Positions 26,087 through 58,862 of a stretch of DNA of 64,000 nt are shown in pieces. The notes beneath the pieces were generated by a model. That model made no database searches, was not told where the DNA came from, and worked only from the letters and a program-made list of their open reading frames with translations. Position 1 is the stretch's first letter. Every line of letters starts with the position of its first letter. The DNA lies in IMG/VR virus record IMGVR_UViG_3300050821_003907, positions 64,001-128,000 of that record. One strand, 5' to 3'. The position numbers and the translations under genes are program-made. The DNA is from a virus.

Positions 26087-27835
26087 GTGGTCAGCATGTG
26101 GTTCAAGGGGTATAACGCTGACCGATTCGAATTCCTGTACTCCCAGTACCTTCCTGCTACCAGTGTTGCTGCCGCAACTTGGGGACTCTACGCTAGTGTT
26201 AGTGGCGGCGAGAATTACTGGTACCTTCAGGGTTACTCAACTGCTGCTGCCTTGGCTGCTGACGTTAATGCCTTTGTGGCCGCTGCTGGCGGAACCCCGT
26301 GGATGGTAATAGGCGACCTGACCACAATTTCTACCACGACAGTGCTCGTGGCCATTAACTTCGAAGTGGCTAAGGGATTCACCGACACTGGCACGGGCAT
26401 TGCTGTTCGCGGTTCCTGGTGCACACTCGGGTACACGCCTTACGCGAACTACGCTGCCGCTCGCACCGCTATTCTCGGCATTACCTCAACGGCTAACGAG
26501 CCTGTTCACAACGTGAGGAACCACGGTGCCGTAGGTGACGGTGTAACCGACGACCATCTGGCTTTCCAGTCGGCCGTTAATGCGGCTAGCACCGCAGGCG
26601 GCGGTGTCGTTTACATCCCTGAAGGTTCTTATTACATCGGAAGCCGCGTTACCCCTCAGAGCACAACAATCATTCAGGGTGCGGGCATGAACACCACCAC
26701 GCTTATCAGCGGAGTAGCGTTTGACTACGTGTTCTACACAAGCAATAGTGGTAGCGGCATTCAGGATTTCACGCTACGTGACCTGACGGTTAACGTGAAT
26801 AACGTTTCGCATGGTGCTGGCATCCGTTTTGAATACGCCACCCGGATTCTCGTAGAGCGTGTTCACATCCAGAACGTGTCCAATGGCTGGGGTGCGGTAA
26901 TTGGCGCTCCGGGAGCCACGAGTACTTACATCAATACAGACATTAAGTTCCGTGATTGCTTCTTCGATACGCAGAACAGCACGCTTGAGATGCTGCTTAT
27001 CATGAACACTCAGCACGCAGAGGTAATTAACTGCAAGTTCTACAATCAGACAGCTTCCAGCGGTCCCGGCCTAGGCATTTATCAGGTTTGCGATGATATC
27101 CAGGTAAGCCACTGCATCTTTAGTGCTATTTCGGGTCCGGCTATTTACTATTCCCTGTCCTGCAATAATATCACCATCGATAACTGCGCTTTTTACGGAG
27201 TAAATGGTGGCACGGGCGTTCAGGGCACTAATCTTTCTGACAATGGGGCGTTCGGGTACGGTTACGTATACGGCCTTTCAGTGACTAATTGCTATTTTAC
27301 GGGGCTTGCCGTAGGACTTCAGCTAGGAGCCACTAAGGGTGCCTTGGTTGACACCTGTAATTTTGACTCGAATTACAACATCGCTATTTTCCTGAATGCA
27401 GGAAACCAGGGCGTTTCGGCCCTGGCTAAGTACTGGACGATAGCGAATTGCCGGTTCCGGAATAACAACCAGCAGGGCACTAATGGCACTATCCACCCCG
27501 CTATCTTCTTTTCCACAATTGCCGGAAGCATGTACGGCAAGTTGACGAATTGCTCTTTCTGGGATGACGGTGCAGGCGGCGTTAATACCCAGTTCTGTCC
27601 TATATCCTTTTACGGGCCAGGAACATGGGATTACATAAAGGTAACTGACTGCTATATTGAGCAGCATTCTACTACTAACGTGAACCAGCAGCTGTTCCTG
27701 GTGAACAGTGCACTCCTCGGCTCAAACGTGGCAATCCTGAACTCCACGTACTCCACAGGGACGGTCACGATACCTGTTAATGCACCGAACCAGCTCAAGG
27801 GTTTCTCTGTAGCCATGGGCATCGCTCTAGGGTAA
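26087..27835 (+). CDS. Pectate-lyase-like right-handed beta-helix (tailspike/depolymerase-like) protein
   Basis: NVRNHGAVGDGVTDDHLAFQSAVNAA...VVYIPEGSY is the Pectate_lyase_3-type N-cap, followed by Asn/Cys-ladder coils; C-terminus AMGIALG. Confidence 0.85.
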   Translation: MVSMWFKGYNADRFEFLYSQYLPATSVAAATWGLYASVSGGENYWYLQGYSTAAALAADVNAFVAAAGGTPWMVIGDLTTISTTTVLVAINFEVAKGFTDTGTGIAVRGSWCTLGYTPYANYAAARTAILGITSTANEPVHNVRNHGAVGDGVTDDHLAFQSAVNAASTAGGGVVYIPEGSYYIGSRVTPQSTTIIQGAGMNTTTLISGVAFDYVFYTSNSGSGIQDFTLRDLTVNVNNVSHGAGIRFEYATRILVERVHIQNVSNGWGAVIGAPGATSTYINTDIKFRDCFFDTQNSTLEMLLIMNTQHAEVINCKFYNQTASSGPGLGIYQVCDDIQVSHCIFSAISGPAIYYSLSCNNITIDNCAFYGVNGGTGVQGTNLSDNGAFGYGYVYGLSVTNCYFTGLAVGLQLGATKGALVDTCNFDSNYNIAIFLNAGNQGVSALAKYWTIANCRFRNNNQQGTNGTIHPAIFFSTIAGSMYGKLTNCSFWDDGAGGVNTQFCPISFYGPGTWDYIKVTDCYIEQHSTTNVNQQLFLVNSALLGSNVAILNSTYSTGTVTIPVNAPNQLKGFSVAMGIALG

Positions 27836-27906
27836 GAAGCGCGAATACGGTACGCTGGATATGACCGCCATCCCTTACATGAGCGTGCTAGGAGGCAGTA
27901 GCTCCC

Positions 27907-30162
27907 ATGGCCCCTTCCTATATCACGCTAACTGTTGACGTTTACAACGGGGCAGGAGCGCAGCCTTCTCGGGGTTATGCGTATTTCGCGCCCAACGTTA
28001 CCCTGACGAACTCCACAGACCACATGGTGGTCACGCAAGGTGCCATAGCAGCGCCCTTCACTAACGGTGTAGCTCCCACAGTAAGCCTGCTGCCCACTGA
28101 CAACGCTAATTTCACGCCTAATGGCTGGGCCTGGACGGTCATATTCAGCCAGAATCCTCCTGTAGACGGTGCGCCAGCTAACTTCAGTTTTGACTTGCCT
28201 GCCGGACCCGCCAATTTTACGGCAACTAATGCTTCTCCTTGTGTTTTCACCTGGACGCCTACTACTACGCTTACAACGCTGCCCGCAGGCACCGGGATTA
28301 AGCTGAGCGGCGGAAGTGTTCCCGCAGGATTCACGGCAGGCACTACGTATTACGTGATTAACTCGTCTGGCTCTACTTTCAACCTGGCGGCTACCGTAGG
28401 CGGTAGTGCCATTAACTCCACGGGCAGCGGTTCAGGCACGCTAAGCGTAGTGAGCATGTTCTTGTCGGCGCTGACACCGCTGTCTCCTACCATTCCCACT
28501 ATCGCGCCTTTCGCGCCGGGACTTTCAGCCAACGTGGTAGTAACCGCTTCAGGCGCGGTGGCGACTAACGTGGTGACTGAGGTAGACGCTAGCACGGGCA
28601 ATAAGGCGATGACGCTGCCAGCTCCAGTCAATGGCGCAATGGTAGTAGTGGAGAAGTGGGACACTACAGGTAATACTGTCACCATTTCCGGCAGCATAAG
28701 AGATTCGGCTGCTTCTGTAACGCTTCAAGCTCAGTACCAGTCGTACATGTTCCTGTGCTGGGCCACTACCTGGTGGCCTGTCGCTTACACGACGCCTACA
28801 GCTACGCTGGACCTCAGATATCCCGTGTGGTACAGCGTTAAGTGGTACGGGGCTAAGGGTGATGGCGTAACTGATGACCATACGGCTTTCCAGAATGCCG
28901 TCAACGCGGCTAATACCGCAGGTGGCGGCATCGTCTACGTTCCCGCATCTTCTTACTATATAGGCAGTCGTGTTACGCTGAAGACAGGCGTGACTATCGT
29001 GGGCGACGGTATTGACTCTACTGTCCTGATAAGCGGCGTGGCCTTTGACTATGTGTTCTACAGCAGCGATAGCGTAAATGGTCTTCAGGACAGCGTTGTC
29101 CAGGACATGACGATTAACGTCAACAACGTATCGCACGGAGCCGGTTATCGTATTGAGTATGCTACGAGGGTAAGCGTACTGAGGGTACGGTTCCTTAATG
29201 TGTCCAACGGATGGGGCGCGGTAGTAGGCATCGGCGTCGGCAGTACCAGTACTTACGTTAACACGCAAATAAAATTCCAGGACTGCTACTTTGACACCCA
29301 GAATAGCACGCTTGAAATGCTGCTGATAATGAACACTCAGCACATGGAGGTCATTAATTGTGACTTCTATAATAACACTGCTTCTAGCGGACCTGCTCTA
29401 GGTATTTATCAGGTGTGTGATGATATTCGCGTGTCTAATTCCACCTTCCGGTCTATCACGGGCCCGGCTCTTTATTACTCATTGTCCTGCAATAATATTA
29501 CCGTAGATGATTGCGCGTTTTACGGGGCTAGCGGTGGCACGGGCATTCAGGGCACTAACCTTTCCGACAACGGCGCTTTCGGGTATGGCTGGGTGTTTGG
29601 ACTGACAGTAAGTAACTGCTATTTCACCGGCCTTGCAATCGCTGTGGAGCTAGGGGCCACTAAGGGCGCTGTAGTTGATAACTGTAATTTCGAGAGTAAT
29701 TATAATATCCCTATTCTTATTCACCAGGGTAACCAGGGTGTTTCTAATACGACGGAGTACTGGATTATCACCAATAGCCGATTCCGTAATAACAACACGC
29801 AGAATACGCTTGCCTCTCTCCATCCCTGCATCTTGTTTCAGGGTGTCGGTGGCAGCATGTTCGGCCGGATTGAAAAGTGCAACATCTGGGACGACAGTGC
29901 GGGCGGTGCTCACACTCAGATTTATCCCATCTGCTTCGTCGGTGCATTTACCTGGGACTACATTAAGATATCCAATTGCTACTTTCAGCAGTACGCCACA
30001 ACTAATGCCGCCCAGCAACTGTTTCTTTTCAGCAGTGCAGTTAACGGGTCTCACGTTATAACCGAAAGTTCCACGTTTGCCACCGGTTCCGTCACGCTTC
30101 CGGTTAACACCGCACCTCAACTCAAGGGTTTTTCCGTCGCCATGGGCATCGCGCTAGGATAG
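27907..30162 (+). CDS. Beta-helix tailspike-like protein, paralog of 26087 with a different N-terminal adaptor
   Basis: YGAKGDGVTDDHTAFQNAVNAA...; long near-identical peptide stretches shared with 26087; same C-terminal QLKGFSVAMGIALG. Confidence 0.85.
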   Translation: MAPSYITLTVDVYNGAGAQPSRGYAYFAPNVTLTNSTDHMVVTQGAIAAPFTNGVAPTVSLLPTDNANFTPNGWAWTVIFSQNPPVDGAPANFSFDLPAGPANFTATNASPCVFTWTPTTTLTTLPAGTGIKLSGGSVPAGFTAGTTYYVINSSGSTFNLAATVGGSAINSTGSGSGTLSVVSMFLSALTPLSPTIPTIAPFAPGLSANVVVTASGAVATNVVTEVDASTGNKAMTLPAPVNGAMVVVEKWDTTGNTVTISGSIRDSAASVTLQAQYQSYMFLCWATTWWPVAYTTPTATLDLRYPVWYSVKWYGAKGDGVTDDHTAFQNAVNAANTAGGGIVYVPASSYYIGSRVTLKTGVTIVGDGIDSTVLISGVAFDYVFYSSDSVNGLQDSVVQDMTINVNNVSHGAGYRIEYATRVSVLRVRFLNVSNGWGAVVGIGVGSTSTYVNTQIKFQDCYFDTQNSTLEMLLIMNTQHMEVINCDFYNNTASSGPALGIYQVCDDIRVSNSTFRSITGPALYYSLSCNNITVDDCAFYGASGGTGIQGTNLSDNGAFGYGWVFGLTVSNCYFTGLAIAVELGATKGAVVDNCNFESNYNIPILIHQGNQGVSNTTEYWIITNSRFRNNNTQNTLASLHPCILFQGVGGSMFGRIEKCNIWDDSAGGAHTQIYPICFVGAFTWDYIKISNCYFQQYATTNAAQQLFLFSSAVNGSHVITESSTFATGSVTLPVNTAPQLKGFSVAMGIALG

Positions 30163-35026: not shown

Positions 35027-37228
35027 GTGACTTACAACACCGTTACGCTGCAAGGCAACGTAATCTACACCAACGGTAGTGGTGACGTTGTCACGGTTAC
35101 GCTGATTCCTACGACATGGTATTACGACATCCCGAATGACACCATTGTCAATCCGCAGTCCCTTTCAGCTACGGCTAACTCTGCGGGTGCGTGGTCTATT
35201 GCCGGGATTATCGACCCGACACCTGACGGCTCAGGTATTCAGTGGACACTTACGGTCAAGGACGCTAACGGCACTACGGTGCTGTACAGTCAGCACGTGC
35301 AAATTGGGTACACTAACGGAGCCACGCAACAGTTCCTGGCGCTTGCCCCTTCGGTAGCTAATACCTCTTTGCTAACTGCCCTTCCCCTTCCGGCAGGCAC
35401 TGCCACAGCTGGGCAGGTTCCCCTTGCCGCAGGCAGTACATCTAATTCCACGTGGGGTAACAACACCGCATTCCTTAACGTCAAGACCATGTACGGTGCT
35501 AAGGGTGACACTAAGAATGTCACTGACGGGGCCATTACGGCCAGCAGCAAGACTCTCACTAGCGCTAGTGCTAACTTCACGTCAGCAGATGTTGGCAAGA
35601 CTGTCATAGTAGCGGGCGCAGGTGCATCAGGTAGTTTCACTACGCTAACCACGACTATCGCGGCTTATGTGTCTTCTACGTCTGTCACGCTTACCGCTGC
35701 TGCGACGAATACGGTTAGCAGTGCAGGCGTATGCTATGGTACTGATGATGTCAATGCTATCCAGAATGCAATTAATGACGCGCTGCTGGCAAGCGTGGGC
35801 ACCCCTAATAACACTAACGGCGCTACGGTTTACCTGCCGCCAGGCCGTTACCTGATAGCTAGCGCGGGCTTGCTTCCCGGTTACTACACCAGCGGGTCCA
35901 CAGTTGGCTACCCGGCTTCTACGGTTACCTTCCAGGGAGCTGACCTGTCCAGTACATCGCTAGTTGCGGGCAGTCAGTTCGTGTTTAACGGGATGATTGC
36001 GTATGGTCGCGGTGGTACGCACATCAACGTATGCCAGATGAATTTTTCAGACATCACGTTTGACGGTAACTGCGCTCAGGGCCTCGGGGGCGCACTGAAC
36101 ATTGACAATGCGGGTGGTGGCGGGCTTGTTGCACTGCCGTGGCCTGGCACGAGTGCCTACACAGGCGCAGGTCTCATAAACAATGTCCGTTCAGGCCGTT
36201 ACCACACGTTCATGCGCTGCAAGTTTTACCGGCCTACAGGCTACGGCTTCCAGCCGACAACAGGCATCAGGCTACTCGGTTGCGAGCTCATGAACATGGG
36301 GCAGTACAACACGGGAGCCGGTGGTTACGATAACCTGGGGTCGGGCCCGGCAGATGCTATTGTAATCGGCTGTAACTGGCACGATTCCAGCGGTAATTTT
36401 TGCGACTTCGTTTCAGGAACTCCCGGTGACTTCATCCGGATGATTATGATTGGCTGTACCAGCACTAACCACACCGCTGGAGGTGCCTGGGGCCTGGGCC
36501 AGGGGTCAGTATTCGTCGGCAACAGCCTGCAAAATAATACCGATGTAGGCTCTGCCGTGTTCTACGATGCGGGAACCGCAGCGGCAAACAGGAGCCGTAA
36601 TGTCGTTACGGGAAACGTGCTGGTTAACATGAACGGCACGGGAACCAATGCTTACGAAGCTTACTGGAACGGGCAGTACGGCGATATTTACACCGCAAAC
36701 TCCATCGGAGACGGCACGCTGGGCACTACTGTTCTTCTGGACAGCACGTCAGGCAATGTTAACAACCTTAACTACGAGCCAGCAGCACTTAATGCGTCTC
36801 TCACGAATGTGGCAATGCCAGGCGCAGGAGATGGTGTTTACACCAGGCTCACCACGTGGGGTAACTCTTCGAGCAGCGTCACGGTCAACATCGCTAACTC
36901 ATCAGGCAACATCTGCATTGCCTTGTATGCCCCGAACTCTACCGGAGGACCTGGTAACCGGATGGCCACTACGGGTTCGGTGGCTTCACCAGGAACAGGC
37001 TTGCAGACGATTAACTTTACCTCGACGGTTATACCCGGAGTAGGCTGGTGGATTGCCATTGCCGCCGATAATAACTCAGTTACATTCAAGGGCTTCGCCT
37101 CTAGTGCAGCTACTGCACCAGACGGGGACTCATATTGCTTCGCTGCTGCCAGCCAGATGCCGTTGCCTTCTACAGCTCCTGCCATTTCATCAGCTATAGC
37201 GCCGAACTTTGTGCTGTTGTCTGCGTAA
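35027..37228 (+). CDS. Third beta-helix tailspike-like protein, unrelated in detail to the first two
   Basis: FLNVKTMYGAKGD...GTDDVNAIQNAIN...VYLPPGRY N-cap split by a ~70-aa insert; beta-helix coils; distinct C-terminal beta-sandwich-like tail. Confidence 0.75.
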   Translation: MTYNTVTLQGNVIYTNGSGDVVTVTLIPTTWYYDIPNDTIVNPQSLSATANSAGAWSIAGIIDPTPDGSGIQWTLTVKDANGTTVLYSQHVQIGYTNGATQQFLALAPSVANTSLLTALPLPAGTATAGQVPLAAGSTSNSTWGNNTAFLNVKTMYGAKGDTKNVTDGAITASSKTLTSASANFTSADVGKTVIVAGAGASGSFTTLTTTIAAYVSSTSVTLTAAATNTVSSAGVCYGTDDVNAIQNAINDALLASVGTPNNTNGATVYLPPGRYLIASAGLLPGYYTSGSTVGYPASTVTFQGADLSSTSLVAGSQFVFNGMIAYGRGGTHINVCQMNFSDITFDGNCAQGLGGALNIDNAGGGGLVALPWPGTSAYTGAGLINNVRSGRYHTFMRCKFYRPTGYGFQPTTGIRLLGCELMNMGQYNTGAGGYDNLGSGPADAIVIGCNWHDSSGNFCDFVSGTPGDFIRMIMIGCTSTNHTAGGAWGLGQGSVFVGNSLQNNTDVGSAVFYDAGTAAANRSRNVVTGNVLVNMNGTGTNAYEAYWNGQYGDIYTANSIGDGTLGTTVLLDSTSGNVNNLNYEPAALNASLTNVAMPGAGDGVYTRLTTWGNSSSSVTVNIANSSGNICIALYAPNSTGGPGNRMATTGSVASPGTGLQTINFTSTVIPGVGWWIAIAADNNSVTFKGFASSAATAPDGDSYCFAAASQMPLPSTAPAISSAIAPNFVLLSA

Positions 37229-40008: not shown

Positions 40009-42027
40009 GTGTCTTACTTGTTCAATGCCGAATATCTATCCTTCCAGCTAAGCTGGGAATTCCTCCAGGGATACAAGGACAAGAAGCCTAACTGGGGATT
40101 TCAGGCAGGTGCAGGGAATTCACTAGGTGAGTACTCATGGATTTCAAAGTACGCAAGGCGTAAAGATGACGGAACGCGGGAGCGTTTCTGGGAAGGTCTT
40201 GCTCGCGTCATCAACGGCATGTACTCAATCCAGCGGGACCACTGCTCTCAGTACCGACTGCCGTGGGATGAGCGCAAGGCGCAGGAATCCGCAGAAGAGG
40301 CGTACGAGCGGGCATTTGCCGGTAAGTGGTCGCCGCCAGGGCGTGGCCTGTGGATGATGGGCACTGAGCTGGTGAATGGCAAGGGTGATTCCTCGGCTCT
40401 CCAGAACTGCGCGATGGTTAGCACGGAACCTTTCAATGGTGACGCAATACTGCCTTACGTTCGCATCATGGACATGTCCATGATGGGCGTAGGTGTTGGC
40501 TTTGACACCAAAGGAGCAGGCAAGGTAGAGATTCACGAGCCGGGTCAGCCTTTTCCGCATCAGATTGGTGACAGCCGCGAGGGCTGGGTCAAGTCTGTAG
40601 CCGCTTTGCTAAGGGCTTTCTTCACGGGCGCTCGCATGCCTAACTTTGACTACTCCCAGATTCGCCCGGCAGGCGCACCAATCAAGGGCTTCGGCGGTAT
40701 CGCGGCAGGGCCAGACCCTTTGCGCAAAGGTCATGAGACTATCGTCAAGCTGCTGGCAGGGCGTGAGGGCCAGGTTCTCACTAGCACAGACGTAGTGGAC
40801 ATCGCCAATGTAATCGGCAAGCTGGTAGTCAGCGGTAATGTACGGCGCAGTGCCCAGATTGCACTCGGTGACATTCATGACAGGGATTTTCTGAAGCTGA
40901 AGGACTGGGAGCTTAATGTTGAGCGCATGGGCGCTGACGGCTGGGGCCACCTTTCAAATAACAGCATTATCGCGCACAGTGGTGATGACCTTAGCCATGT
41001 AGCTGACGCTATCCGCATGAATGGTGAGCCGGGCGTAGTCTGGCTGGACATGTGCCGCGATTACGGTCGTGTTTCTGATGGCAAGGACGGTAATGACTGG
41101 CGAGTAGCTGGCATTAATCCTTGCGCTGAGCAGCCTCTAGAGAACATGGAATGCTGCACGCTGGTGGAGACTTACCCTACTAACCACAGTGACTACCTGG
41201 ACTACCAGCGCACTCTTAAGTTTGCGTACCTGTACGGCAAGACCGTAACTCTCCTGCCTACTCGCTGGCCTGAGACCAACGCTGTGATGCAGCGTAACCG
41301 ACGTATAGGGCTGTCGATGACAGGACTAGCACAGTTCGCTGAGCATCAGGGCACGCAGGAACTCACGCTATGGCAGGACAACGCCTATGAGCATCTTCGC
41401 ATGCGTGATGCCCAGTACTCCGAATGGCTAGGCGTGCGGGAGTCTATTCGTATCACCACCATAAAGCCGTCCGGTACTGTGTCTCTACTGTACGGCGTAA
41501 CGCCGGGCGTGCACTGGCCGGTGGCCAGCGGATACTACATCCGAACGGTACGAGAGGCTAAGGGCAGCGCGGTTGCACGTGCGTTTGAGGCCGCAGGTTA
41601 CCTCGTTGAGCCGTCTGTCATGGACCCGGATAGCATGGTCGTCATCACATTGCCTGTGCAGACGCCGCCTATGCGCAGTCAGAACGATGTTTCCGTGTGG
41701 GAAAAGGTCAGCCTTGCGGCTAGCTGCCAGCGCTGGTGGTCAGACAATGCCGTGTCCGTGACAGCTACTTTCCGGCCTGATGAGTCTAACCAGATTCCTG
41801 CTGTTCTGCGTGCATTCGATGGCCAGCTAAAGAGTCTTAGCTTCCTGCCTGCTGACACGGAAACCTATCCGCAGATGCCGTACCAGATGTGCAGCCTGGA
41901 GTACTGGGAGAGCCTGCGAGACAACATCATGCCCATTGACTGGGAGGGTCTTTACATGGACGAGTCCCTGCCGGACGCTGAAGGTGAGCGGTACTGCACC
42001 ACAGATGCTTGTGAAATCAAGCGCTAA
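40009..42027 (+). CDS. nrdJ: Class II (adenosylcobalamin-dependent, monomeric RTPR-type) ribonucleotide reductase
   Basis: SPPGRGLW, LQNC, VSGNVRRSA, INPCAEQPL, ECCTLVE, TIKPSGTVS and C-terminal CTTDAC. Confidence 0.93.
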   Translation: MSYLFNAEYLSFQLSWEFLQGYKDKKPNWGFQAGAGNSLGEYSWISKYARRKDDGTRERFWEGLARVINGMYSIQRDHCSQYRLPWDERKAQESAEEAYERAFAGKWSPPGRGLWMMGTELVNGKGDSSALQNCAMVSTEPFNGDAILPYVRIMDMSMMGVGVGFDTKGAGKVEIHEPGQPFPHQIGDSREGWVKSVAALLRAFFTGARMPNFDYSQIRPAGAPIKGFGGIAAGPDPLRKGHETIVKLLAGREGQVLTSTDVVDIANVIGKLVVSGNVRRSAQIALGDIHDRDFLKLKDWELNVERMGADGWGHLSNNSIIAHSGDDLSHVADAIRMNGEPGVVWLDMCRDYGRVSDGKDGNDWRVAGINPCAEQPLENMECCTLVETYPTNHSDYLDYQRTLKFAYLYGKTVTLLPTRWPETNAVMQRNRRIGLSMTGLAQFAEHQGTQELTLWQDNAYEHLRMRDAQYSEWLGVRESIRITTIKPSGTVSLLYGVTPGVHWPVASGYYIRTVREAKGSAVARAFEAAGYLVEPSVMDPDSMVVITLPVQTPPMRSQNDVSVWEKVSLAASCQRWWSDNAVSVTATFRPDESNQIPAVLRAFDGQLKSLSFLPADTETYPQMPYQMCSLEYWESLRDNIMPIDWEGLYMDESLPDAEGERYCTTDACEIKR

Positions 42028-46234: not shown

Positions 46235-46848
46235 CGCACACCGTGCAAATCGATACCATATTCGATAGCTGCATACTCAATCATGTCGCGGACGCGCTCC
46301 AGGGCTTCCCAGCAGTCGTCTCCAAGCTTGTCTTGGAGCGCTCCGTGATACATCTGAGTGTTGACCAGTCGCCACGCTGTCCTGACATCTTGCGCTGACC
46401 TGATAGGCGGGTTCTCAATATCGTTAGGCATTAATCTTCCCAACCATCAGGATAAGGGCAGTGGTCGAGGGCATTGCGAAGGTAATTATCCACTAGTTCG
46501 AAATCTTCCTTAGCATCTATGCACCGGATAACAGCATCGCGAATGTAACCAGGCAGGTCGTCAGGCAATGAATTCAGGCTTAGTCCGTACTCTAGCACCA
46601 GTCCGGAGAACCCACCTTCCCAGTCAGCCTTAGCTGCCATGTCGTAACTGTTACGGTACTTGTCAGCAGTCATCTATGCACTCACTTCCTTCTTTTGGGT
46701 CTACTTCGCAGCAGTTCTTGCAGATAGAAGTTCCGAGAGAATCAGAATAGCTTACGACGATATGACCTTCTGGATGAAATCCTGTTCCAGCCATTATAAG
46801 CCCCCCGCTATATACGTTTATTACCATTGCGATAGGGCCTCGTGGCAT
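46231..46848 (-). other. Three small hypothetical ORFs
   Basis: 46231-46443, 46431-46673 and 46663-46848, overlapping and convergent with the lysin. Confidence 0.5.
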
Positions 46849-47350
46849 TGTATTCCATCTTGCGCAGGTAATCCAGTTCCAGGTTCAGGTCAAATAGCTG
46901 AGCGCAAGCATCCACAGTCCCAAGTAGCAGTCCCAGGCCACGACCTATTTCCTGCTCACCTGTAATCCTGTAAGACTCTGTGACACCGGCAGCGCAAGCA
47001 TGCATGTCGTTCAGGCAGCGGCTAACCATGTCATATTCATCTCGGGTGTCCATGTCCCAGGTAACGTGAGGCACAAGGTCGTGGGAAATCCGGACTTCAT
47101 AACGCCCGATATTGTCCATGGTGCGGATGAAGACATCGGCTAGCTCAATGCCAAACCCGTCAGGACCGCCAGAGTCAGACTGGTAAGGGATGAAGCGAGC
47201 GTTCTTGTATGCCTGCCAGGCTTCTGCAATCTCCGTGTGGATTAGCGCCATGGCTTCAGGTACCTGGACGACCATGTCGTCCCAGCCGTGCTTGGCACAC
47301 CAGGTCCTGACTTCATCCTTGATTTCAATCAAGCGTATCGTAGTGAACAT
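46808..47350 (-). CDS. MazG-like nucleotide pyrophosphohydrolase
   Basis: ALIHTEIAEAWQA...GIELADVFIR...RKMEYNATRPYRNG (ExxE...EL.D helix pattern). Confidence 0.8.
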   Translation of the reverse strand: MFTTIRLIEIKDEVRTWCAKHGWDDMVVQVPEAMALIHTEIAEAWQAYKNARFIPYQSDSGGPDGFGIELADVFIRTMDNIGRYEVRISHDLVPHVTWDMDTRDEYDMVSRCLNDMHACAAGVTESYRITGEQEIGRGLGLLLGTVDACAQLFDLNLELDYLRKMEYNATRPYRNGNKRI

Positions 47351-47813
47351 TACAGTCCCAGTTCTCTAAGAATCTTGTCGGCAAAGTCTAGTCCCTCGCG
47401 GGTGTACTCGCCAACAGGTACCCACGTATCTACATTAAACCATCCGTCGTCCCGGACGTATTCCTGAATTCTGACAGTTCCCCTGCTAACGAATGCGCGA
47501 TAACGTCCGTCTTCAGATTCCCAGTCAGCGCTCACCGGTGTCTCCTACTGTCGCTGGTAGGCTTCTGCGAAGCGCTCGTAGTCTTCTTGCTTAATCTTGC
47601 CGTCCGGAAGTGGGCCGAACTTGGCCACTATCCACTGAACGAATTCCGGGTACTGTATTGCCAGGTGCTTCCAGGTAATGTTGGTGCTCACAGTGTCTTC
47701 CTTCCTGCTGTCTTCCAGTAGTGGCGGGCCATTACTTTTTCCTTAAGCCTCATGGGCAGTAGCCAGAACCACCAGGATTCCATGTACGCGAAACTGTCCT
47801 TGTTCTTAGCCAT
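47350..47813 (-). other. Three small ORFs (47350-47535, 47545-47691, 47688-47813)
   Basis: Read directly; coupled start/stop codons. Confidence 0.5.
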
Positions 47814-48159
47814 CGTCTACCACCTTCCACTGCTTGCCGTCCTTTATCTCAATGCGCAGGTTGTTGTCCTGCATGTCTTTCTCAACCCGCTGTTCAGGAG
47901 ACTCACCTTTAAACCATAGCTGCCTGTTTACCCACAGTTTGAACAAGGCGTGCTCGGTCATGCGGCGGAATGCACGTCGCTTGTTCATTAGCTGGGAGCG
48001 CTCTTCTCGCGACTCGCCACGTGCACCGGACGGGTGGTGGATGATTCTGATGCCTGTGTTGCTCGTATTCTGGTGTTGTCCACCTGGACCGCCAGCAGAG
48101 AAGTCCTGAACTTCACAGTCTTTTATGGTCACGGAGAACACGTGCTCTTTCTTAGGCAA
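47806..48159 (-). CDS. Release-factor-1-domain (GGQ) peptidyl-tRNA hydrolase, ArfB/PrfH-like
   Basis: FSAGGPGGQHQNTSNTGIRIIHHPSG...SREERSQLMNKRRA; only 117 aa, no codon-recognition domain. Confidence 0.88.
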   Translation of the reverse strand: MPKKEHVFSVTIKDCEVQDFSAGGPGGQHQNTSNTGIRIIHHPSGARGESREERSQLMNKRRAFRRMTEHALFKLWVNRQLWFKGESPEQRVEKDMQDNNLRIEIKDGKQWKVVDDG

Positions 48160-48349
48160 GCTTATACTCCATGCCGTCCTTGTAGCCTGTCTCGTAAGCC
48201 TCTCCCAGCACGTCCATTAGCGCGATGGGGATGCCCTTGTGCTGAGTCTTCTGCCACTTCTTGCACATTTCCCAGACAATTTCGTCGCGACGCTTCTCGT
48301 ACTCTGACTTCATGTCCATACCAACGCTGAGCCATGGTACGATATTCCT

Positions 48350-48598
48350 ATGAACGAACTGATTCTTCGCCTTAAGGCCCTGTTCCTCGGAGTCGAGAAG
48401 GTTGCCAAGTCCGACGAGCAAATCGTCGCGAACATCGTCGCCAAGGACCGGGTGGCAGTCATGGCTGCCCTCCAGGCCGCAGAGGACGCCGCTATCGCTG
48501 CCGTCAAGGCAGACACCCCCGAGGTAGAGGCGCTAGTAAAGGCTGCCGTCAAGGACGTTGTAGACGCCCTGCTGGCCAAGCTGCCGACCATCCTCTAG
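48350..48598 (+). CDS. Small Ala-rich helical protein, leaderless
   Basis: TG-G-TACGAT, 6 nt, ATG; amphipathic AAEDAAIAAVKA... helix. Confidence 0.6.
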   Translation: MNELILRLKALFLGVEKVAKSDEQIVANIVAKDRVAVMAALQAAEDAAIAAVKADTPEVEALVKAAVKDVVDALLAKLPTIL

Positions 48599-48617
48599 CA
48601 TGCGGTAGGCTAGGGGC

Positions 48618-50178
48618 ATGAACGAGAATTTCGGTGCTCCTGGTGGTTACTCTCCGGAAGAGATGATGGCTCTTGAAGGCTACACGCCGGAGAGGCTAGA
48701 GTCATTCCGTGAAGAGACTAAAGCGCGTGTTGAAGAGGCGCACCGCAAGTCACTAACGGATAAATTGCGTACCCAGAAGCCTGTAGTCCTGGCTGAGCAA
48801 GAGAAGCCTTTGCGTAACGTCACGGTCCTGCTGGGCAACGGCAAGCTCATCACTTTCCGCAAGGTGTCTGACCTTGACTTCGGCGTTAAGGGTGATGACG
48901 GATTCAGTGCCTTGTACTTGCTAGGTGAAGACGGTAATGTCATTGCCCAGTTCGAGCCTACAACATGGGCAGCTTACTACTACGCCGAGCACTGCCAGGG
49001 AATACAGTAAGCCGCTCGGCTGTTATCGTTGTCATGACTGTGCAGCAGCTACTCACTCAGCTCACCGGACTCGGCCTGGGCGGTCTTGACGAGAGCGATT
49101 CTCAAGTCGTGTTCAAGGACGGCACTCCGCTCACCACAGTGGCCACGGACCTTACCGGCAAGGTGATACTCTCATGAAGCGAACTGACCGAGAAAAGCAA
49201 GCACGAGACGTAGAGCGCCTGTATAAGCTTACAGAGCTGAACCAGGAGATGTACGGCATCACAGGTGATAGTGACCTGACTCATACGGATTACATTCACC
49301 TCGAAGTCCTTATCGAGAAGGCTTTCAGCCAAGGTGAGATGTTCGGTTACGATGACGGCTGGGCAGATGCCCCGGATGGATGGTAATCATGGAACTGCGT
49401 TATGCATTGTTCAGCTTCGCTGCGTTTGTCTGCGCGATGTCATCAATAATTACACTCGCCACGCAGAAGAACTCAGCAATCCGGGTGATTGCCACCATCC
49501 TGAACATGTTCATTATCTGGCTGCTAATCTGGGGCGCGTTGTCCTGATGTTGCATCCAGAACCCTACGATGTGTGCCGGGACTGCAATCACCCGCGTTCA
49601 GCTCATGGTTCTGCCACAGTAGACACAACTAGCAGTTGCTTCAGGTGCGGTTGCTGGGGATTTGAGGAAGAATGAACAAGTGTGATTACAACTTGCACAG
49701 GCCAGATGGCACGTGGGGACCTTGCAAGCAAGAAGCTGATTATGAACTAGCCTGGTGCAGCACTAAGATATACCTTTGTCGCGACCACTGGAGTAACTGA
49801 TGGCGGCTCATCCCGAGGTAGGCACTCCCGGTACTTGCCAGCGGCATGTTTACTGGGCGGGTGATAACGTAAGTTATCCTTGCGGTCAGCCGGGAACTCT
49901 TCAGCGCGACCCGTTCACCCGTGAAATCTGGGAGAGCGAAGACTACGTGTACTTCTGTGACTACCATTTCTCGGAGCGAGCAGATGATATATAACCAGGA
50001 CGGCAAGCTGAAGCTAGCCGGACGCTATCTCGCCACTAACGAGAAGTACGAGCAGTTCGTGACTGACGATGTTGATGAGCTGCACGAGTGGGTGAACGCA
50101 CAGCAGGGTCCGTGCCACATGCAAGACATCGGATTCTACCTAGGCCCTATCCTAGAGGACATGAACCGTGAACGTTGA
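48618..50178 (+). other. Run of small hypothetical ORFs (48618-49010, about 49034-49177, 49174-49386, several 60-110 aa Cys/His-rich ORFs, 49989-50178)
   Basis: Packed ORFs with coupled junctions; exact starts uncertain. Confidence 0.5.
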
Positions 50179-51556
50179 GCACATAGGCCACGCCGGTTTC
50201 ATCGTCACGTCAGGTGACAAGAAGCTAGTATGCGACCCGTGGTTTAACCCTGCGTTCCTTAAATCCTGGTTTCCGTGGCCTGATAACAGGCACCACATGG
50301 ACGCAGCGCGCACCGCTGACGCCTTGTACATCTCGCATGCACATGAGGACCACTTCGACCGTGAGTTCCTGAAGACGATGCCTGACAAGGGCATTGAGGT
50401 GCTGGTTCCCAGGTTCAGGTCTAGCTATCTTACTAAGGAAATCAAGGAGCTAGGCTTCATTAACGTCCACGAAATGGTCCACGGTTCTACGTACTGGCTG
50501 TTCAAGAACCTTGACGTGAAGATGCTCATTGACCAGTCACACAAGGAAGACTCTGCCCTTCTGTGTGAGGACCTTGAAACAGGTTATCGTTTTCTGAATA
50601 GCAACGATTGCGAGCTAGCTGCAAATGACTGGCCGCAGGACATAGACCTCCTGGCTGCTCAGTATTCTGGGGCGTTCTGGTATCCTCACTGCTATGATTA
50701 CACGCAGTCCCAGCAGGTTGCCAAGGCAAAGGAAGTCGTCAAGAACAATATCGACAGGCTTTGCCGTCGAATCAAGCTCACGGGCGCTAAGAAGTACTTG
50801 CCATCGGCTGGACCAGCTGTATTCCTGGACCCTGAACTGCGGCACTATAACTTCAGCGGTATCTTTCCTCAGTTTGTTGATGTAGAAGAGGAAATTGAGC
50901 GGCAATGCCCGGACATTACATTTCACAGCGCTATGCACGGCGGAATTTACTTCTTTGCTGATTACCTCCATGACCGGCGTCATGAGTGGCAGTCCTGGTT
51001 TTACGAAGACTATGCTCCGGCTGAATCTCACGAACTGGCAGCACATTTCCGTAATCTTGAGCGGACTAACAGCGTGTTCCTGCAAGATTATCGCACCGAC
51101 CTGGCTATCTACTCCGGACGAGATGACTGGCAGGTACAGCTAGGCGTGGTGAAGGGTGAGCTTGAGGAAAGCTTTGACCCGCACTATTTCATGAACGTGC
51201 CACCGCGTGTGCTGCGAGCTGTGCTGGACGGACGGGCTACGTGGGAGACGGCGCTGCTGTCCAATCGCATTAAGCTCAAGCGCAACCCTGATAAGTACGA
51301 TTATAAGCTCATGGGACTGCTTAGCTTCGGAGACCGGCCTGCTCAGACTCGTGCCATGCACCGAGCGCAGCGGGCTAGCGAGACCATTACCCGCGACGGC
51401 CTTATCCTGCCCAGGTATTGCCCCCATGCTGGGGAGGATTTGTCTATCGCAACTATCTGCGATGGTGTTATTGAATGCCCTCGGCATAACTGGTCTTGGA
51501 CAACCTCAGGTGAATGTATTACCGCGCAAATTCCCATTGAGGTGAGAAAAGCATAG
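50168..51556 (+). CDS. namH: NamH-like (CMAH superfamily) metallo-beta-lactamase-fold hydroxylase with C-terminal Rieske [2Fe-2S] domain
   Basis: GHAGF, CDPWFNPAF..SWFPWPDN, HAHEDH (HxHxDH), QYSGAFWYP..YD, PSAGPAVFLDPELRHYN; Rieske RYCPH...IECPRHNW. Motif order matches my recollection of M. tuberculosis Rv3818. Confidence 0.8.
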   Translation: MNVEHIGHAGFIVTSGDKKLVCDPWFNPAFLKSWFPWPDNRHHMDAARTADALYISHAHEDHFDREFLKTMPDKGIEVLVPRFRSSYLTKEIKELGFINVHEMVHGSTYWLFKNLDVKMLIDQSHKEDSALLCEDLETGYRFLNSNDCELAANDWPQDIDLLAAQYSGAFWYPHCYDYTQSQQVAKAKEVVKNNIDRLCRRIKLTGAKKYLPSAGPAVFLDPELRHYNFSGIFPQFVDVEEEIERQCPDITFHSAMHGGIYFFADYLHDRRHEWQSWFYEDYAPAESHELAAHFRNLERTNSVFLQDYRTDLAIYSGRDDWQVQLGVVKGELEESFDPHYFMNVPPRVLRAVLDGRATWETALLSNRIKLKRNPDKYDYKLMGLLSFGDRPAQTRAMHRAQRASETITRDGLILPRYCPHAGEDLSIATICDGVIECPRHNWSWTTSGECITAQIPIEVRKA

Positions 51557-51565
51557 AATTGGGGT

Positions 51566-51994
51566 ATGAACTTCGCGTGGTACTTCGTCGTTTACCACTG
51601 GCTGGAGCTGAATGGCTTCTACAGGGACATCCTGGCCAGTGTTATTGGCCTTGGCGCTGCGCGTACCATAGCGGCACGTCCCCTGCGGGGCGTAAAGGCA
51701 TCTCAGGCACGTCAAGAGGACCTTCTGGATACCAAAACCCCTGGCGGTCTTGCTGAGGTTCACGCGGAACTCAAGGCTTTGCGTCACCTTCTGAGTGACA
51801 CCAGCGAAACCAGTCAAGGGCATGAAGACGAAGACGAGACGCCGGAAATGGACGACAAGGACAAGGGCGGGGAATCTAGCGGCAAGCGAGGCTGGCTTAC
51901 CCAGTATCGCAGGTCCCGTAAGGGACACGGTGGAGCGGGCGTTCCTGAGGCTCCCCGGGAGCCTCCGCATTTTCTGCCGCCAGGGCACCGCTAA
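51566..51994 (+). CDS. Membrane-associated hypothetical protein
   Basis: Hydrophobic N-terminus; LLDTKTPGGLAEV motif; charged tail. Confidence 0.55.
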   Translation: MNFAWYFVVYHWLELNGFYRDILASVIGLGAARTIAARPLRGVKASQARQEDLLDTKTPGGLAEVHAELKALRHLLSDTSETSQGHEDEDETPEMDDKDKGGESSGKRGWLTQYRRSRKGHGGAGVPEAPREPPHFLPPGHR

Positions 51995-52731
51995 TGACTT
52001 CTAAGTACGAAAAATTGTGCGTCAGATGTAATCAAGTATTTACTACTCTGGATAAAAGACAACGTTATTGCAGTAAAGAGTGTTGGTACTCACATAATAG
52101 TACTGAGGTACTAACTTATACAGAAGCTAAGATTTATTTGAGCAGTATAAAGGCTGCACGAGGTTGCGAGAATTGCGGTTACTGTAATCCGATTGCCTTG
52201 GATTTTGACCACGTTGACCGCTCAACCAAGCTAGCTCCTCTAGCACGTTTGTCTAGAACTAGCGTGAAACAATCAGTGTTGCAGGAAGAATTGGCTAAAT
52301 GTATGGTCTTGTGTGCGAACTGTCACGTCATTAAGACAAGGGATAATCAAGATTGGCGCCGTCCCAGTAAGCGCATTATTTGCGGATTCCTTATAGCAGG
52401 AACAGACTTGTGCCAGTTGAGTTCAGGACATAGTGGCGGTCATAGGCGAATTAGTTCTAGCACTAATACTAATAGTCGCAGAAAGGAGCGCCGTATTTGG
52501 GTAGACGCGCTTAAACTAGCGGCGGCCTGTACAGACTGCGGCTACGATACTGATGCTAGGGCGCTACAGTTTGACCACGTAAATCGTGGTGATAAACTAC
52601 TACCGGTGGCGTCGATGCTTCATTATGACGAAGAGCGTTTGCGCGCTGAAATCGCTAAATGTGTAATTCGCTGTGCTAACTGTCACAGGCTTAAGACAAA
52701 GGCAGGAGGTGAGTATAGGCATGGCTTCTAA
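51994..52731 (+). CDS. Protein with two tandem HNH endonuclease domains
   Basis: GCENCG...LDFDHVD...ELAKCMVLCANCH and ACTDCG...LQFDHVN...EIAKCVIRCANCH. Confidence 0.8.
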   Translation: MTSKYEKLCVRCNQVFTTLDKRQRYCSKECWYSHNSTEVLTYTEAKIYLSSIKAARGCENCGYCNPIALDFDHVDRSTKLAPLARLSRTSVKQSVLQEELAKCMVLCANCHVIKTRDNQDWRRPSKRIICGFLIAGTDLCQLSSGHSGGHRRISSSTNTNSRRKERRIWVDALKLAAACTDCGYDTDARALQFDHVNRGDKLLPVASMLHYDEERLRAEIAKCVIRCANCHRLKTKAGGEYRHGF

Positions 52732-57355: not shown

Positions 57356-57792
57356 TACTGCACATCCCAGGGTAGCTCTTCCTGGTTCTCCAGGAGCCGC
57401 TTGATGGCAGGTTCTGCGGGCATGTAATTCGGGCCCTTGAGAATCTTGCCGTCATCGCGCAGGAGAGGCTGGCAGTCTGGCCCAATCTTAGACATGTTCG
57501 ACAGGTGGACTAGCCGCAGGACTTCATCCAGGTTAATGCCGTAAGTAATCGCAGTCCCGTAGGCTACGTACACGACGTCAGCTAGTTCCTTGGCAATAGC
57601 CACGAGTTCATCTGACTCAAGAGCCTCAACAAGCTCACGCGTTTCCTCCCACTGAAGAGATGAACGCAGGCTTATCTCCTGGTTGTCAATGTTTGCGGGC
57701 TGCGCGGGCGTGTTGCGCATGGGCAGGTCGAACATCGCGTGGAAGTTAGCGACTTCCCAGGCCACATCGGACACACCATCTGGTGTAGGCAT
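57355..57792 (-). CDS. MazG-superfamily NTP pyrophosphohydrolase (PRA-PH-like)
   Basis: VANFHAMF...WEETRELVEA...KELADVVYVAYG...VHLSNMSK...DGKILKGPNY. Confidence 0.85.
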   Translation of the reverse strand: MPTPDGVSDVAWEVANFHAMFDLPMRNTPAQPANIDNQEISLRSSLQWEETRELVEALESDELVAIAKELADVVYVAYGTAITYGINLDEVLRLVHLSNMSKIGPDCQPLLRDDGKILKGPNYMPAEPAIKRLLENQEELPWDVQ

Positions 57793-58862
57793 TAGTATCC
57801 TCCTTCTATGTCAAGGGCGTGCTTAAGTGCTTTTGCAACACATGTAGCGAGCGTCGGCGGCACGGCATTACCGATTAGCCGGTAGGCTGAGCTGGCAGGG
57901 ACCGCGTTCCACGGCAGGTCCACCGGAAAGGTCTGCAACGCAGCAGCTTCCTGCGCGGTAATCCTGCGGTGAACATAACCACTGTCTCCGCGATAAGGAC
58001 GGGCACCATCTACGAGAAAGGGGTGGTACCACTCTACCCACGGAGATACACTACCACCCGAGTTCAAGCTGAGAGAATCAATGAACGGAGTCTTGTTACC
58101 TCCCATTATTGCTGGAAGGGTATAAGCAGGTGCGTCTAGGTTCAGCGGTCGTGCTCCGTTGAATAGCATTCCACTGTACGGACTACTGCGAAGCACAGGA
58201 TTGCGGGCGAATGTAATCTTTGCGTTCGACTTAATGTCGTTGCCCAGCGCTCCGTAAACAGGCATTTCCGATAGGACACTGCGAACTGTGCCGCCCCGCA
58301 TGCGCTGGTCAAACATAGCACACGTAAACGGTATGGAAATGCTGGAATTCTTGGGGAATCCTGCCAGGAACAAGCGCTCGCGGTGCTGGGGCACGCCGTA
58401 TTCTGCGGCATCAACCACTAGCGCGCACAAGTCGTAAGACTCCCGGAGGAAACTTTTCAGGCGCTGAAAAGCTGAAGCATGCCGGGAACTTGTAAGGTCC
58501 TTTACGTTCTCCATGAGGAATGCACGAGGCTTCTTTGCATACACCACTGCTGAAAATGCGAATATCATCTGGCTTCGAGGGTCGTCAGGGTCTTGATTGC
58601 CTGCCCTGCTGAATCCCTGGCACGGCGGCCCACCGATGATTACGTCGGAGTCAGGGATTTCCTCTTCCCAGTTAGCGTGCATGATGTTGCCGGTAGAAAA
58701 ATGAGAATCACGCTGGGACATGTAGTTACGTTGCATGGCAGCATCGTGAATCACCTTGGCGTGAGGGTCGGTATCGTTAGCCCACTGCACATCGAACCCG
58801 GCATTCGTAAAGCCAATGTCAAGTCCGCCTGCTCCAGAGAACAAGCTTGTAACGGTAGTCAT
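57792..58862 (-). CDS. C5-cytosine DNA methyltransferase
   Basis: SLFSGAGG (I), GGPPCQGFS (IV), MENV (VI), PQHRER (VIII), ALQTFP (IX), IGNAVPP (X). Confidence 0.95.
   Translation of the reverse strand: MTTVTSLFSGAGGLDIGFTNAGFDVQWANDTDPHAKVIHDAAMQRNYMSQRDSHFSTGNIMHANWEEEIPDSDVIIGGPPCQGFSRAGNQDPDDPRSQMIFAFSAVVYAKKPRAFLMENVKDLTSSRHASAFQRLKSFLRESYDLCALVVDAAEYGVPQHRERLFLAGFPKNSSISIPFTCAMFDQRMRGGTVRSVLSEMPVYGALGNDIKSNAKITFARNPVLRSSPYSGMLFNGARPLNLDAPAYTLPAIMGGNKTPFIDSLSLNSGGSVSPWVEWYHPFLVDGARPYRGDSGYVHRRITAQEAAALQTFPVDLPWNAVPASSAYRLIGNAVPPTLATCVAKALKHALDIEGGY

Follow-up and report, generated by a model that had tools for sequence, protein, structure and literature searches.

A gene for a two-domain oxygenase, carried by a large uncultured phage, belongs to a lineage that travels with phage amino-sugar genes and therefore most likely serves to make a rare N-glycolyl sugar for a phage-made glycan rather than to remodel the host wall. 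The gene lies in the 64-kb stretch of DNA analyzed here (the window), which comprises positions 64001-128000 of a 181,160-bp IMG/VR virus record that is 98% complete (CheckV). The enzyme, presumably O2 dependent, probably converts an N-acetyl to an N-glycolyl group on an amino-dideoxyhexose made by the phage, and not on UDP-MurNAc. That a large uncultured phage lineage makes its own N-glycolylated amino-dideoxyhexose and places it on virions or on another phage-directed glycan is a plausible but somewhat doubtful extension of this reading.

The hydroxylase gene is located mid-genome, and its features have the following window coordinates.

50155 to 50159, plus strand: Shine-Dalgarno sequence GAGGA, 8 nt upstream of the GTG start, read from the sequence.
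50168 to 51556, plus strand: hydroxylase gene, 462 aa, with a GTG start and the stop codon within the span.
50168 to 50860, plus strand: metallo-beta-lactamase (MBL)-fold catalytic domain, approximately residues 1 to 230, assigned from Pfam PF13483 and PF12706, DSSP of the model, and Foldseek.
50336 to 50353, plus strand: HxHxDH metal motif (H57, H59, D61, H62), the four ligands being invariant in all three groups of the family.
51380 to 51553, plus strand: C-terminal Rieske [2Fe-2S] domain, approximately residues 405 to 462, assigned from Pfam PF00355 and PDB sequence matches.
51419 to 51487, plus strand: Rieske cluster ligands C418-x-H420 ... C437-x-x-H440, assigned from the alignment.

The first-pass annotation had described an intact 462-aa open reading frame, and the list of open reading frames contains it with the span, strand, and start codon given above. 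Every motif that it had named (GHAGF, CDPW, SHAHEDH as HxHxDH, QYSGAFWYP, PSAGPAVFLDPELRHYN, and CPH...CPRH) is present in the translation. The Pfam hits also agree with the proposed order of an MBL domain followed by a Rieske domain, which is the architecture of NamH (PMC10050696): Lactamase_B_3 covers residues 3-88 (31.3 bits; cut-off, 24), and Rieske scores 27.3 bits (cut-off, 20.3) over residues 416-453 of 462. The N-terminus lines up with those of homologs, and GAGGA occurs with identical spacing in two relatives (L002 and L082); a small upstream open reading frame (49921-50178) overlaps the hydroxylase start by 11 nt. In Foldseek, the AF2 model (pLDDT, 87.9; pTM, 0.87) was matched best by proteins of the MBL fold, among them the diiron hydroxylases FrsH (8a90; E 7e-9) and CmlA (5kik/4jo0). 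By sequence, SxtT and KshA in the PDB were matched in their Rieske portions. PHROGs and NCBIfam contained no informative family for the protein.

In total, 567 homologs of the hydroxylase were found. The family tree, which is unrooted, comprises three groups: a phage clade that includes the query, a set of bacterial paralogs designated Group A, and canonical NamH (Mycobacterium, Mycolicibacterium, and Micromonospora). The split between the phage clade plus Group A and canonical NamH plus outliers has 99/99 support, and the canonical NamH clade has 100/100 support and is separated from the query by a branch of 1.8 substitutions per site. The median identity to the query is 51.6% in the phage clade, 45.5% in Group A, and 27.6% in canonical NamH, and the phage clade is monophyletic with respect to Group A in 52% of bootstrap trees. 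Group A members were found in Kitasatospora, Embleya, Amycolatopsis, Microbispora, Frankia, Rhizobium subbaraonis, Acidobacteriota, and Melainabacteria, and as a second copy in Gordonia rhizosphera. The Rieske ligands are the same in 97/97 aligned family members, whichever of the three groups these belong to, and the query retains all 48 family-invariant residues. At seven positions near the motifs, the phage clade and Group A share an unvarying residue (E60, H105, D122, H125, K126, C148, and C175) that is exchanged in NamH; E60, for example, is restricted to the former two groups, with R, K, or H at this position in canonical NamH. Membership in the phage clade or Group A is marked by full-length similarity of 40% or more together with E60, H105, D122, H125, K126, E127, C148, and C175, and the query has all of these. 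The first-pass description of the protein as NamH-like thus stands insofar as it is an intact, phage-borne member of the NamH/CMAH-type MBL-plus-Rieske superfamily and fails as to NamH orthology: the protein lies outside the canonical NamH clade, with its best matches in a different MBL-Rieske clade, an outcome that the first-pass annotation had itself named as counting against its proposal.

The gene neighborhoods of the groups were compared. Within 4 kb of the Group A genes, an SDR epimerase/dehydratase was present at 60/79 loci, a GFO/MocA oxidoreductase at 43/79, a DegT gene at 39/79, and a PglD-like acetyltransferase at 13/79, and this association with amino-sugar genes spans several phyla. 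No DegT, SDR, GFO, or PglD gene was present within 5 kb of canonical NamH at any of 20 loci. Both paralogs occur in G. rhizosphera, where only the Group A copy is in a sugar cluster. The clade of the hydroxylase is entirely metagenomic, and all nine contigs checked (9/9) are phage. In six of these nine (L083, L085/86, L087, L142, L159, and the P0028 contig), the hydroxylase is part of the run GT1-GT2-GNAT-DegT-hydroxylase-dehydratase. This cassette is located just after the capsid gene, its stop and start codons often overlap, and the hydroxylase usually follows DegT directly; the GNAT gene is present in 5/6 of these contigs as well as in the query genome. In another contig (L143), the capsid gene precedes the hydroxylase, after which the contig stops. 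Because the phage contigs are mutually related (capsids 56-61% identical among the relatives compared), the synteny that they share cannot be counted as wholly independent evidence. Relatives with a hydroxylase-free cassette also exist, in records that are just 4-36% complete, so that absence from the whole genome cannot be claimed for them.

The same cassette, with the hydroxylase elsewhere, occurs in the query phage (genome positions 31-43 kb), where it adjoins the capsid gene and encodes an RmlB-like 4,6-dehydratase, a PseC-like DegT aminotransferase, a GNAT N-acetyltransferase, a GT4, a GT2, and three methyltransferases; the dehydratase, DegT, and GNAT genes lie at 38.1-42.0 kb. The 90% relative of the query also keeps this cassette. 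In the query and in its 90% and 70% relatives, the hydroxylase is located 72 kb from the cassette rather than in the structural operon, and its neighbors are small open reading frames, an RF-1-domain gene, HNH genes, and nucleotide-metabolism genes. The query hydroxylase is linked to amino-sugar genes, then, at the level of the genome and not by adjacency. The capsid C-termini contained nothing diagnostic and no obvious glycosylation-prone extension.

The domains, ligand residues, clade placement, gene contexts, and purifying selection were shown directly, whereas we infer the substrate, product, electron donor, and acceptor of the enzyme as follows. The likely substrate is a nucleotide-activated, N-acetylated 4-amino-4,6-dideoxyhexose from the phage's own cassette. 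The MBL-fold domain is presumed to hold a non-heme iron oxygenase site, to which the Rieske [2Fe-2S] domain would pass electrons from a host-supplied donor; the iron site would then hydroxylate the methyl of the N-acetyl group to give N-glycolyl, which is the known chemistry of NamH and CMAH. The tailored, phage-made glycan would probably be attached to virion proteins, and the adjacent methyltransferases might O-methylate the glycolyl hydroxyl. Neither a ferredoxin nor an FNR-type reductase was found when the phage genome was searched for Fer2 and FNR-type domains. The assignment of N-acetyl hydroxylation is an extrapolation from ∼28% identical relatives, since neither the phage clade nor Group A has a characterized member. 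An N-glycolyl sugar for virion decoration had been a secondary idea of the earlier annotation, and it is the reading that the genomic context, an amino-sugar cassette beside the capsid gene, backs.

The cassette sugar could instead undergo a different reaction, either N-oxygenation of a free 4-amino group (to hydroxylamino, nitroso, or nitro) or C-hydroxylation of the 6-deoxy methyl. N-oxygenases are known among Rieske and diiron enzymes, and both the usual position of the hydroxylase straight after DegT and an active-site neighborhood unlike that of NamH would suit such chemistry. However, the recurrent GNAT and the fact that both characterized relatives, NamH and CMAH, hydroxylate N-acetyl groups argue against it, and we consider it unlikely.

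It is quite unlikely that the protein works as NamH does, hydroxylating host UDP-MurNAc (or the pentapeptide) and N-glycolylating the host peptidoglycan during infection so as to alter sensitivity to lysins or lysozyme or to exclude other phages. The domain order and the metal and cluster ligands are those of NamH, but the ∼28% identity, the position outside the canonical clade with the support values given above, and the seven differing residues near the motifs leave a NamH ortholog acting on host-wall UDP-MurNAc, as originally proposed, unsupported. The query gene is 4 kb from a putative PG_binding_1 lysin and detached from the sugar cassette, which would fit a role at the wall; most of its clade, however, is embedded in the DegT/GNAT/dehydratase cassette, and Proteobacteria, Acidobacteriota, and Melainabacteria are among the closest bacterial relatives. 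The JGI family label "UDP-MurNAc hydroxylase" also favors this function, but it is automatic, and Group A genes in sugar clusters carry the same label. This automatic transfer is spreading to proteins that are probably not that enzyme, an annotation that the amino-sugar reading corrects.

A further alternative is that a common host nucleotide-sugar (e.g., UDP-GlcNAc) is hydroxylated and feeds another phage glycosyltransferase, such as an 824-aa GT2, yielding an N-glycolylated exopolysaccharide or a modified host surface. A Pfam search of the phage's own genome placed the large GT2 at genome positions 130,689-132,101, about 16 kb downstream of the hydroxylase, which in the query phage is closer to this gene than to the capsid cassette. 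No related contig, however, shows a conserved linkage of hydroxylase and large GT2, the conserved partners being DegT, GNAT, and dehydratase, and this route seems rather improbable.

The window encodes DNA polymerase, primase, helicase, and tail spikes, with portal and capsid genes upstream of it, and no tRNA genes were found in its 64 kb. A host-phage chimera at this locus, which the first-pass annotation had raised as an objection, is ruled out by an unbroken 5.8-kb alignment (window 46238-52009; 81% at the nucleotide level) across the gene and both flanks to a 163.5-kb relative that was assembled independently. At about 70% at the nucleotide level, the locus is also collinear with a third assembly. 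The GC content of the hydroxylase gene is 52.7%, versus 54.7% for the genome. The gene is under purifying selection: dN/dS is 0.08 in the comparison with the 90% relative and 0.13 in that with the 70% relative. That the gene is a passenger of bacterial origin, in decay or without function, would fit the detachment from the cassette and the mobile HNH and methylase insertions in the region but can be dismissed as highly improbable given these dN/dS values, the retention of all family-invariant residues, the position conserved across three independent assemblies, and the native GC content.

Compared with cultured phages, the capsid is at most 31% and the DNA polymerase at most 29% identical. The matches of these two proteins lean weakly toward actinophages, a tendency that is database biased, and the homologs of the lysin and capsid are all metagenomic proteins, the capsid lineage numbering over 2,300 relatives. 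The survey of phage databases that the first-pass annotation had suggested returned no match to the hydroxylase in 50,697 GenBank phage records by megablast or tblastn, although records close to this genome may be missing from that set and absence is therefore not proven. Scans of IMG/VR with the protein and with the family alignment returned the 90% relative as the sole match. A literature search found no account of a phage-borne NamH.

To our knowledge, phage glycosylation has so far involved glycosyl- and methyl-transfer only, in a few mycobacteriophages, and we know of just two enzymes that make N-glycolyl sugars. N-glycolylation matters in immune recognition, where Neu5Gc is a xenoantigen and MurNGc a stronger NOD2 ligand. 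No characterized precedent emerged from a literature search on bacterial glycans with hydroxyacetamido or N-glycolyl amino sugars, and N-glycolyl groups in bacterial glycans beyond muramic acid are regarded as rare or unreported (PMC2543016, PMC5378307). If the proposed function is correct, the product would join Neu5Gc and MurNGc as a third class of N-glycolyl sugar in nature, and a sugar-tailoring oxygenase would be known for the first time from phage glycosylation. Group A enzymes would then act likewise on the cell-surface polymers of many soil bacteria. A widespread sister group at amino-sugar clusters, with one branch phage-borne and beside the capsid gene, would thus point to undescribed N-glycolyl sugars in both bacteria and phages.

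Among known systems, CMAH, the animal CMP-Neu5Ac hydroxylase, depends on a redox chain of eukaryotic cytochrome b5. It possesses both domain types and converts N-acetyl to N-glycolyl on a nucleotide-sugar, and its Rieske domain is encoded by exons 2-4 (PMC5767959). Compared by domain order, the Rieske domain is N-terminal in CMAH but C-terminal in the phage enzyme. The beta-hydroxylases CmlA and FrsH, which have a carboxylate-bridged diiron site, are the best structurally characterized oxygenases of the MBL fold. They match the phage model in fold (Foldseek E, 7e-9 to 2e-7) but are 15-16% identical, are without a Rieske domain, and act on carrier-protein-bound amino acids. In the mycobacteriophages Che8, Corndog, and Myrna, phage glycosyltransferases and methyltransferases decorate capsid and tail proteins, according to Freeman et al. 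2023 as relayed in PMC12363180. The query cassette, a candidate for virion glycosylation, likewise combines phage-encoded glycosyltransferases with methyltransferases and is located among structural genes; a homolog of the sugar-tailoring hydroxylase, in contrast, is absent from the GenBank phages searched.

NamH (Rv3818 and M. smegmatis) shares with the phage protein an N-terminal, UlaG-like MBL domain and a C-terminal Rieske domain, with HxHxDH, D147, and CxH...CxxH kept in both, and O2-dependent hydroxylation of the N-acetyl methyl is presumably common to both. The phage protein is about 50 aa shorter (462 versus a median of 520) in addition to its low identity and separate clade, and NamH genes stand alone, whereas those of the phage clade are found in an amino-sugar cassette. 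The bacterial Group A paralogs are closer: identity over the full length is 41-46%, and all of the residues that distinguish Group A from NamH (19/19) are common to Group A and the phage protein. Group A differs from the phage clade consistently at four positions (155, 293, 361, and 377), and the bacterial clusters contain GFO/MocA and PglD-type acetyltransferase genes (WbpB/E/D-like), whereas the phage cassette contains an RmlB-like 4,6-dehydratase and a GNAT. In bacteria and phages alike, however, the hydroxylase is linked to an SDR dehydratase/epimerase and DegT.

The hydroxylase gene opens with a GTG codon preceded 8 nt upstream by a GAGGA Shine-Dalgarno sequence, which is kept in two relatives, and its start overlaps a small upstream ORF by 11 nt. 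The translation contains an MBL domain (residues 3 to 88; Pfam PF13483, 31.3 bits with a cut-off of 24), a Rieske domain (residues 416 to 453; Pfam PF00355, 27.3 bits with a cut-off of 20.3), and all of the motifs quoted in the first-pass annotation. The GC content of the gene is 52.7% versus 54.7% for the genome, a 181,160-bp IMG/VR virus record with 98% completeness (CheckV); the window spans positions 64001 to 128000 of this record. PHROG matches within the window include DNA polymerase, primase, helicase, and tail spikes, and the portal and HK97 capsid genes are located upstream of it. Strong purifying selection acts on the gene, with dN/dS values of 0.08 in the comparison with the relative that is 90% identical in protein sequence and 0.13 in that with the 70% relative. 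A chimeric assembly, the artifact that the first-pass annotation had envisaged, was ruled out: in a 163.5-kb relative that was assembled independently, a single 5.8-kb alignment (81% nucleotide identity) covers the gene together with the sequence on either side, and a third assembly is collinear with the locus at ∼70% nucleotide identity. The gene neighbors in the query and in the 90% and 70% relatives are small ORFs, an RF-1-domain gene, a MazG-like gene, a PG_binding_1 protein, and HNH genes. Features of the window are as follows (window coordinates).

26087-30162 and 35027-37228, + strand: tail-spike/pectin-lyase proteins, comprising two neighboring tail-spike paralogs (pectate-lyase/beta-helix type) and one further protein that matches a "pectin lyase" PHROG
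40009-42027, + strand: class II (B12-dependent) ribonucleotide reductase, 88% identical in nucleotides to that of a relative
47806-48159, − strand: RF-1-domain protein of 117 aa with a GGQ motif, ArfB/peptidyl-tRNA-hydrolase type, kept in both relatives
50168-51556, + strand: hydroxylase ORF, 462 aa
51566-51994, + strand: 142-aa ORF beginning 10 nt past the hydroxylase stop
51994-52731: Cys-rich ORF of 245 aa that repeats an HNH-like motif internally and has no Pfam match
57792-58862: C5 cytosine DNA methylase

The tail spikes suggest polysaccharide-degrading receptor-binding proteins. The Cys-rich ORF and the methylase are specific to the window, being missing from the 81%-identical relative, and resemble mobile insertions that flank the hydroxylase block. 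The 142-aa ORF is kept in both relatives, with a length of 144 aa in the 90% relative and 156 aa in the 70% relative; its N terminus is hydrophobic, its tail is acidic and of low complexity, it matches no Pfam family, and it cannot be recognized as a redox partner.

A search of 5.8 billion proteins yielded 567 matches to the hydroxylase. The closest homolog is 90% identical and is encoded on the 163.5-kb phage contig, another is 70% identical, and ∼40 metagenomic homologs are 47 to 56% identical. Chromosomal homologs from Kitasatospora, Amycolatopsis, Microbispora, Pseudonocardiaceae, and others are 42 to 47% identical, and many of them bear the automatic JGI label "UDP-MurNAc hydroxylase." The AlphaFold2 model (pLDDT 87.9, pTM 0.87) matches MBL-fold proteins, and the top matches include FrsH (8a90, E 7e-9) and CmlA (5kik, 4jo0), which are, to our knowledge, the only diiron MBL-fold hydroxylases of known structure. 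The PDB matches, whether by sequence or by fold, included no structure of NamH or CMAH. In NamH, the UlaG/MBL domain is N-terminal and the Rieske domain is C-terminal (PMC10050696), the order that had been correctly given in the first-pass annotation.

Across 101 genomes sampled from the GTDB order containing Gordonia, the usual homolog is single-copy and 27 to 35% identical to the query (119 to 170 bits); the exception is Gordonia rhizosphera, which possesses the usual copy and a second copy at 43% identity. By exact-sequence look-up, the distant group (Group B) includes proteins of Mycobacterium sp., Mycolicibacterium iranicum, Micromonospora, Jatrophihabitans, and Cryptosporangiaceae. Group B is the canonical NamH orthogroup, and several of these taxa are classical for N-glycolyl-muramic acid. 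The paralogs nearer the query (Group A) are found in Kitasatospora, Embleya, Yinghuangia, Amycolatopsis, Microbispora, and Frankia, as the second G. rhizosphera copy, and also in Rhizobium subbaraonis, Acetobacteraceae, Myxococcota, Acidobacteriota, and Melainabacteria. A quick IQ-TREE tree of 100 rows placed Group B as monophyletic with 100% support on a branch of 1.79 substitutions per site and united Group A at 99% with a 42-member, all-metagenomic clade that includes the query (the phage clade). In a careful tree of 48 rows, the phage clade plus Group A was separated from Group B plus three outliers with 99/99 support and from Group B alone with 100/100 support; only 52% of bootstrap trees recovered the phage clade as monophyletic with respect to Group A. 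Median identities to the query were 51.6% (phage clade), 45.5% (Group A), and 27.6% (Group B). The 48 residues invariant across all three groups include H57, H59, D61, H62, D147, and the Rieske ligands C418, H420, C437, and H440. At another 19 positions, including E60, D122, and C148, the phage clade and Group A share a conserved residue that differs in Group B; H105, H125, K126, and C175 behave likewise, with Group B variable at H105 and K126. These diagnostic residues adjoin metal motifs. Microbispora sp. NPDC046973 additionally encodes a third, very divergent MBL-plus-Rieske paralog (L064:2-1549; 31% identity to the query, long branch) ∼2.5 kb upstream of its Group A gene in the same locus.

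The two groups also differ in gene context. Within 4 kb of the Group A gene, an SDR epimerase/dehydratase is present in 60/79 loci, a GFO/MocA oxidoreductase in 43/79, DegT in 39/79, a UDP-sugar dehydrogenase in 18/79, and a PglD-type acetyltransferase in 13/79, counts that overstate independence because many loci are congeneric. The sugar genes are mostly co-directional with the hydroxylase and immediately upstream of it. The more meaningful part is the recurrence of this linkage across phyla, as it extends to Myxococcota, Acidobacteriota, and Melainabacteria. As a control, canonical NamH loci, including the NamH-type copy of G. rhizosphera, were scanned, and 0/20 had any of these sugar genes within 5 kb. 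The contrasting contexts of the two G. rhizosphera paralogs (Group A copy on contig C212, canonical NamH on contig C94), both in one genome, make a good case that the two have diverged in function.

Nine contigs were sampled from across the metagenomic clade; all of them come from phages and encode a terminase, a portal, an S78 protease, and an HK97 capsid. On six (L083, L085/86, L087, L142, L159, and the P0028 contig), the hydroxylase is embedded in an amino-sugar cassette that lies downstream of the capsid gene at a distance of a few kb. The genes are usually arranged as GT1, GT2, GNAT, DegT, hydroxylase, and 4,6-dehydratase, and stop and start codons often overlap. Contig L143 ends after the hydroxylase, which there comes next to the capsid gene on its downstream side; in the same contig, the gene for the S78 prohead protease (L143:4112-6430) bears an intein (Intein_splicing plus HNH_3). 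The query genome keeps the cassette 72 kb upstream of the hydroxylase, as listed here in genome coordinates.

31.4-42.7 kb (L088:4435-15720), upstream of the window: complete amino-sugar cassette, between capsid and connector genes
31.4 kb: GT2
32.2-33.5 kb: capsid
36.3 kb: GT4
37.4 kb: second GT2
38.1 kb: GNAT
38.6 kb: DegT, PseC-like
between DegT and the dehydratase: two methyltransferases
40.9 kb: RmlB-like 4,6-dehydratase
past the dehydratase: third methyltransferase

The 90% relative has the same cassette as the query. In the cassette of other relatives (records 4 to 36% complete), DegT and the dehydratase are immediate neighbors, without an intervening hydroxylase.

The phage gene encodes a protein of two domains in which the Rieske and MBL metal ligands are intact and the MBL fold is oxygenase-like, and the gene is maintained by purifying selection. 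NamH and CMAH are the only characterized relatives known to us. By analogy with these enzymes, electrons would enter via the Rieske cluster, and O2 would be activated at the iron site of the MBL domain, resulting in hydroxylation of an N-acetyl methyl group. The gene context points to an N-acetylated 4-amino-4,6-dideoxyhexose nucleotide, the predicted product of the dehydratase, DegT, and GNAT, as the likely substrate, and the hydroxylated sugar would then be transferred by the cassette GTs. The position of the cassette among head genes suggests that the glycan acceptor is virion proteins, for which virion glycosylation in Che8, Corndog, and Myrna is a precedent (Freeman 2023, as cited in PMC12363180). 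No Fer2 ferredoxin or FNR-type reductase is encoded in the phage genome, and therefore the electron donor would have to come from the host.

A different chemistry on the same cassette sugar, such as N-oxygenation, is considered unlikely. Glycolylation of host peptidoglycan, the main idea of the first-pass annotation, is disfavored by clade placement, diagnostic residues, and gene context alike, and we regard it as quite improbable. It is similarly doubtful that the enzyme acts on UDP-GlcNAc to serve another phage GT; the candidate, an 824-aa open frame with a GT2 match (genome 130,689-132,101, − strand, ∼2.7 kb past the window end), has no conserved linkage in its support. A dead passenger gene is rejected by the dN/dS values.

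No hydroxylase homolog was detected in 50,697 GenBank phage records, and scans of IMG/VR yielded just one other. The capsid and polymerase are ≤31% identical to their cultured-phage counterparts. The capsid (L088:5171-6481) has >2,300 metagenomic relatives at E ≤ 1e-20, none named or cultured, of which many are 67 to 73% identical, on contigs of up to 235 kb; therefore, the phage belongs to an abundant, uncultured lineage of large phages. The literature searched yielded no phage NamH-like enzyme and, besides MurNGc, no characterized N-glycolyl amino sugar in bacterial glycans. The N-glycolyl group is mainly mammalian (PMC2543016), and a possible N-glycolyl legionaminic acid would be a bacterial first (PMC5378307).
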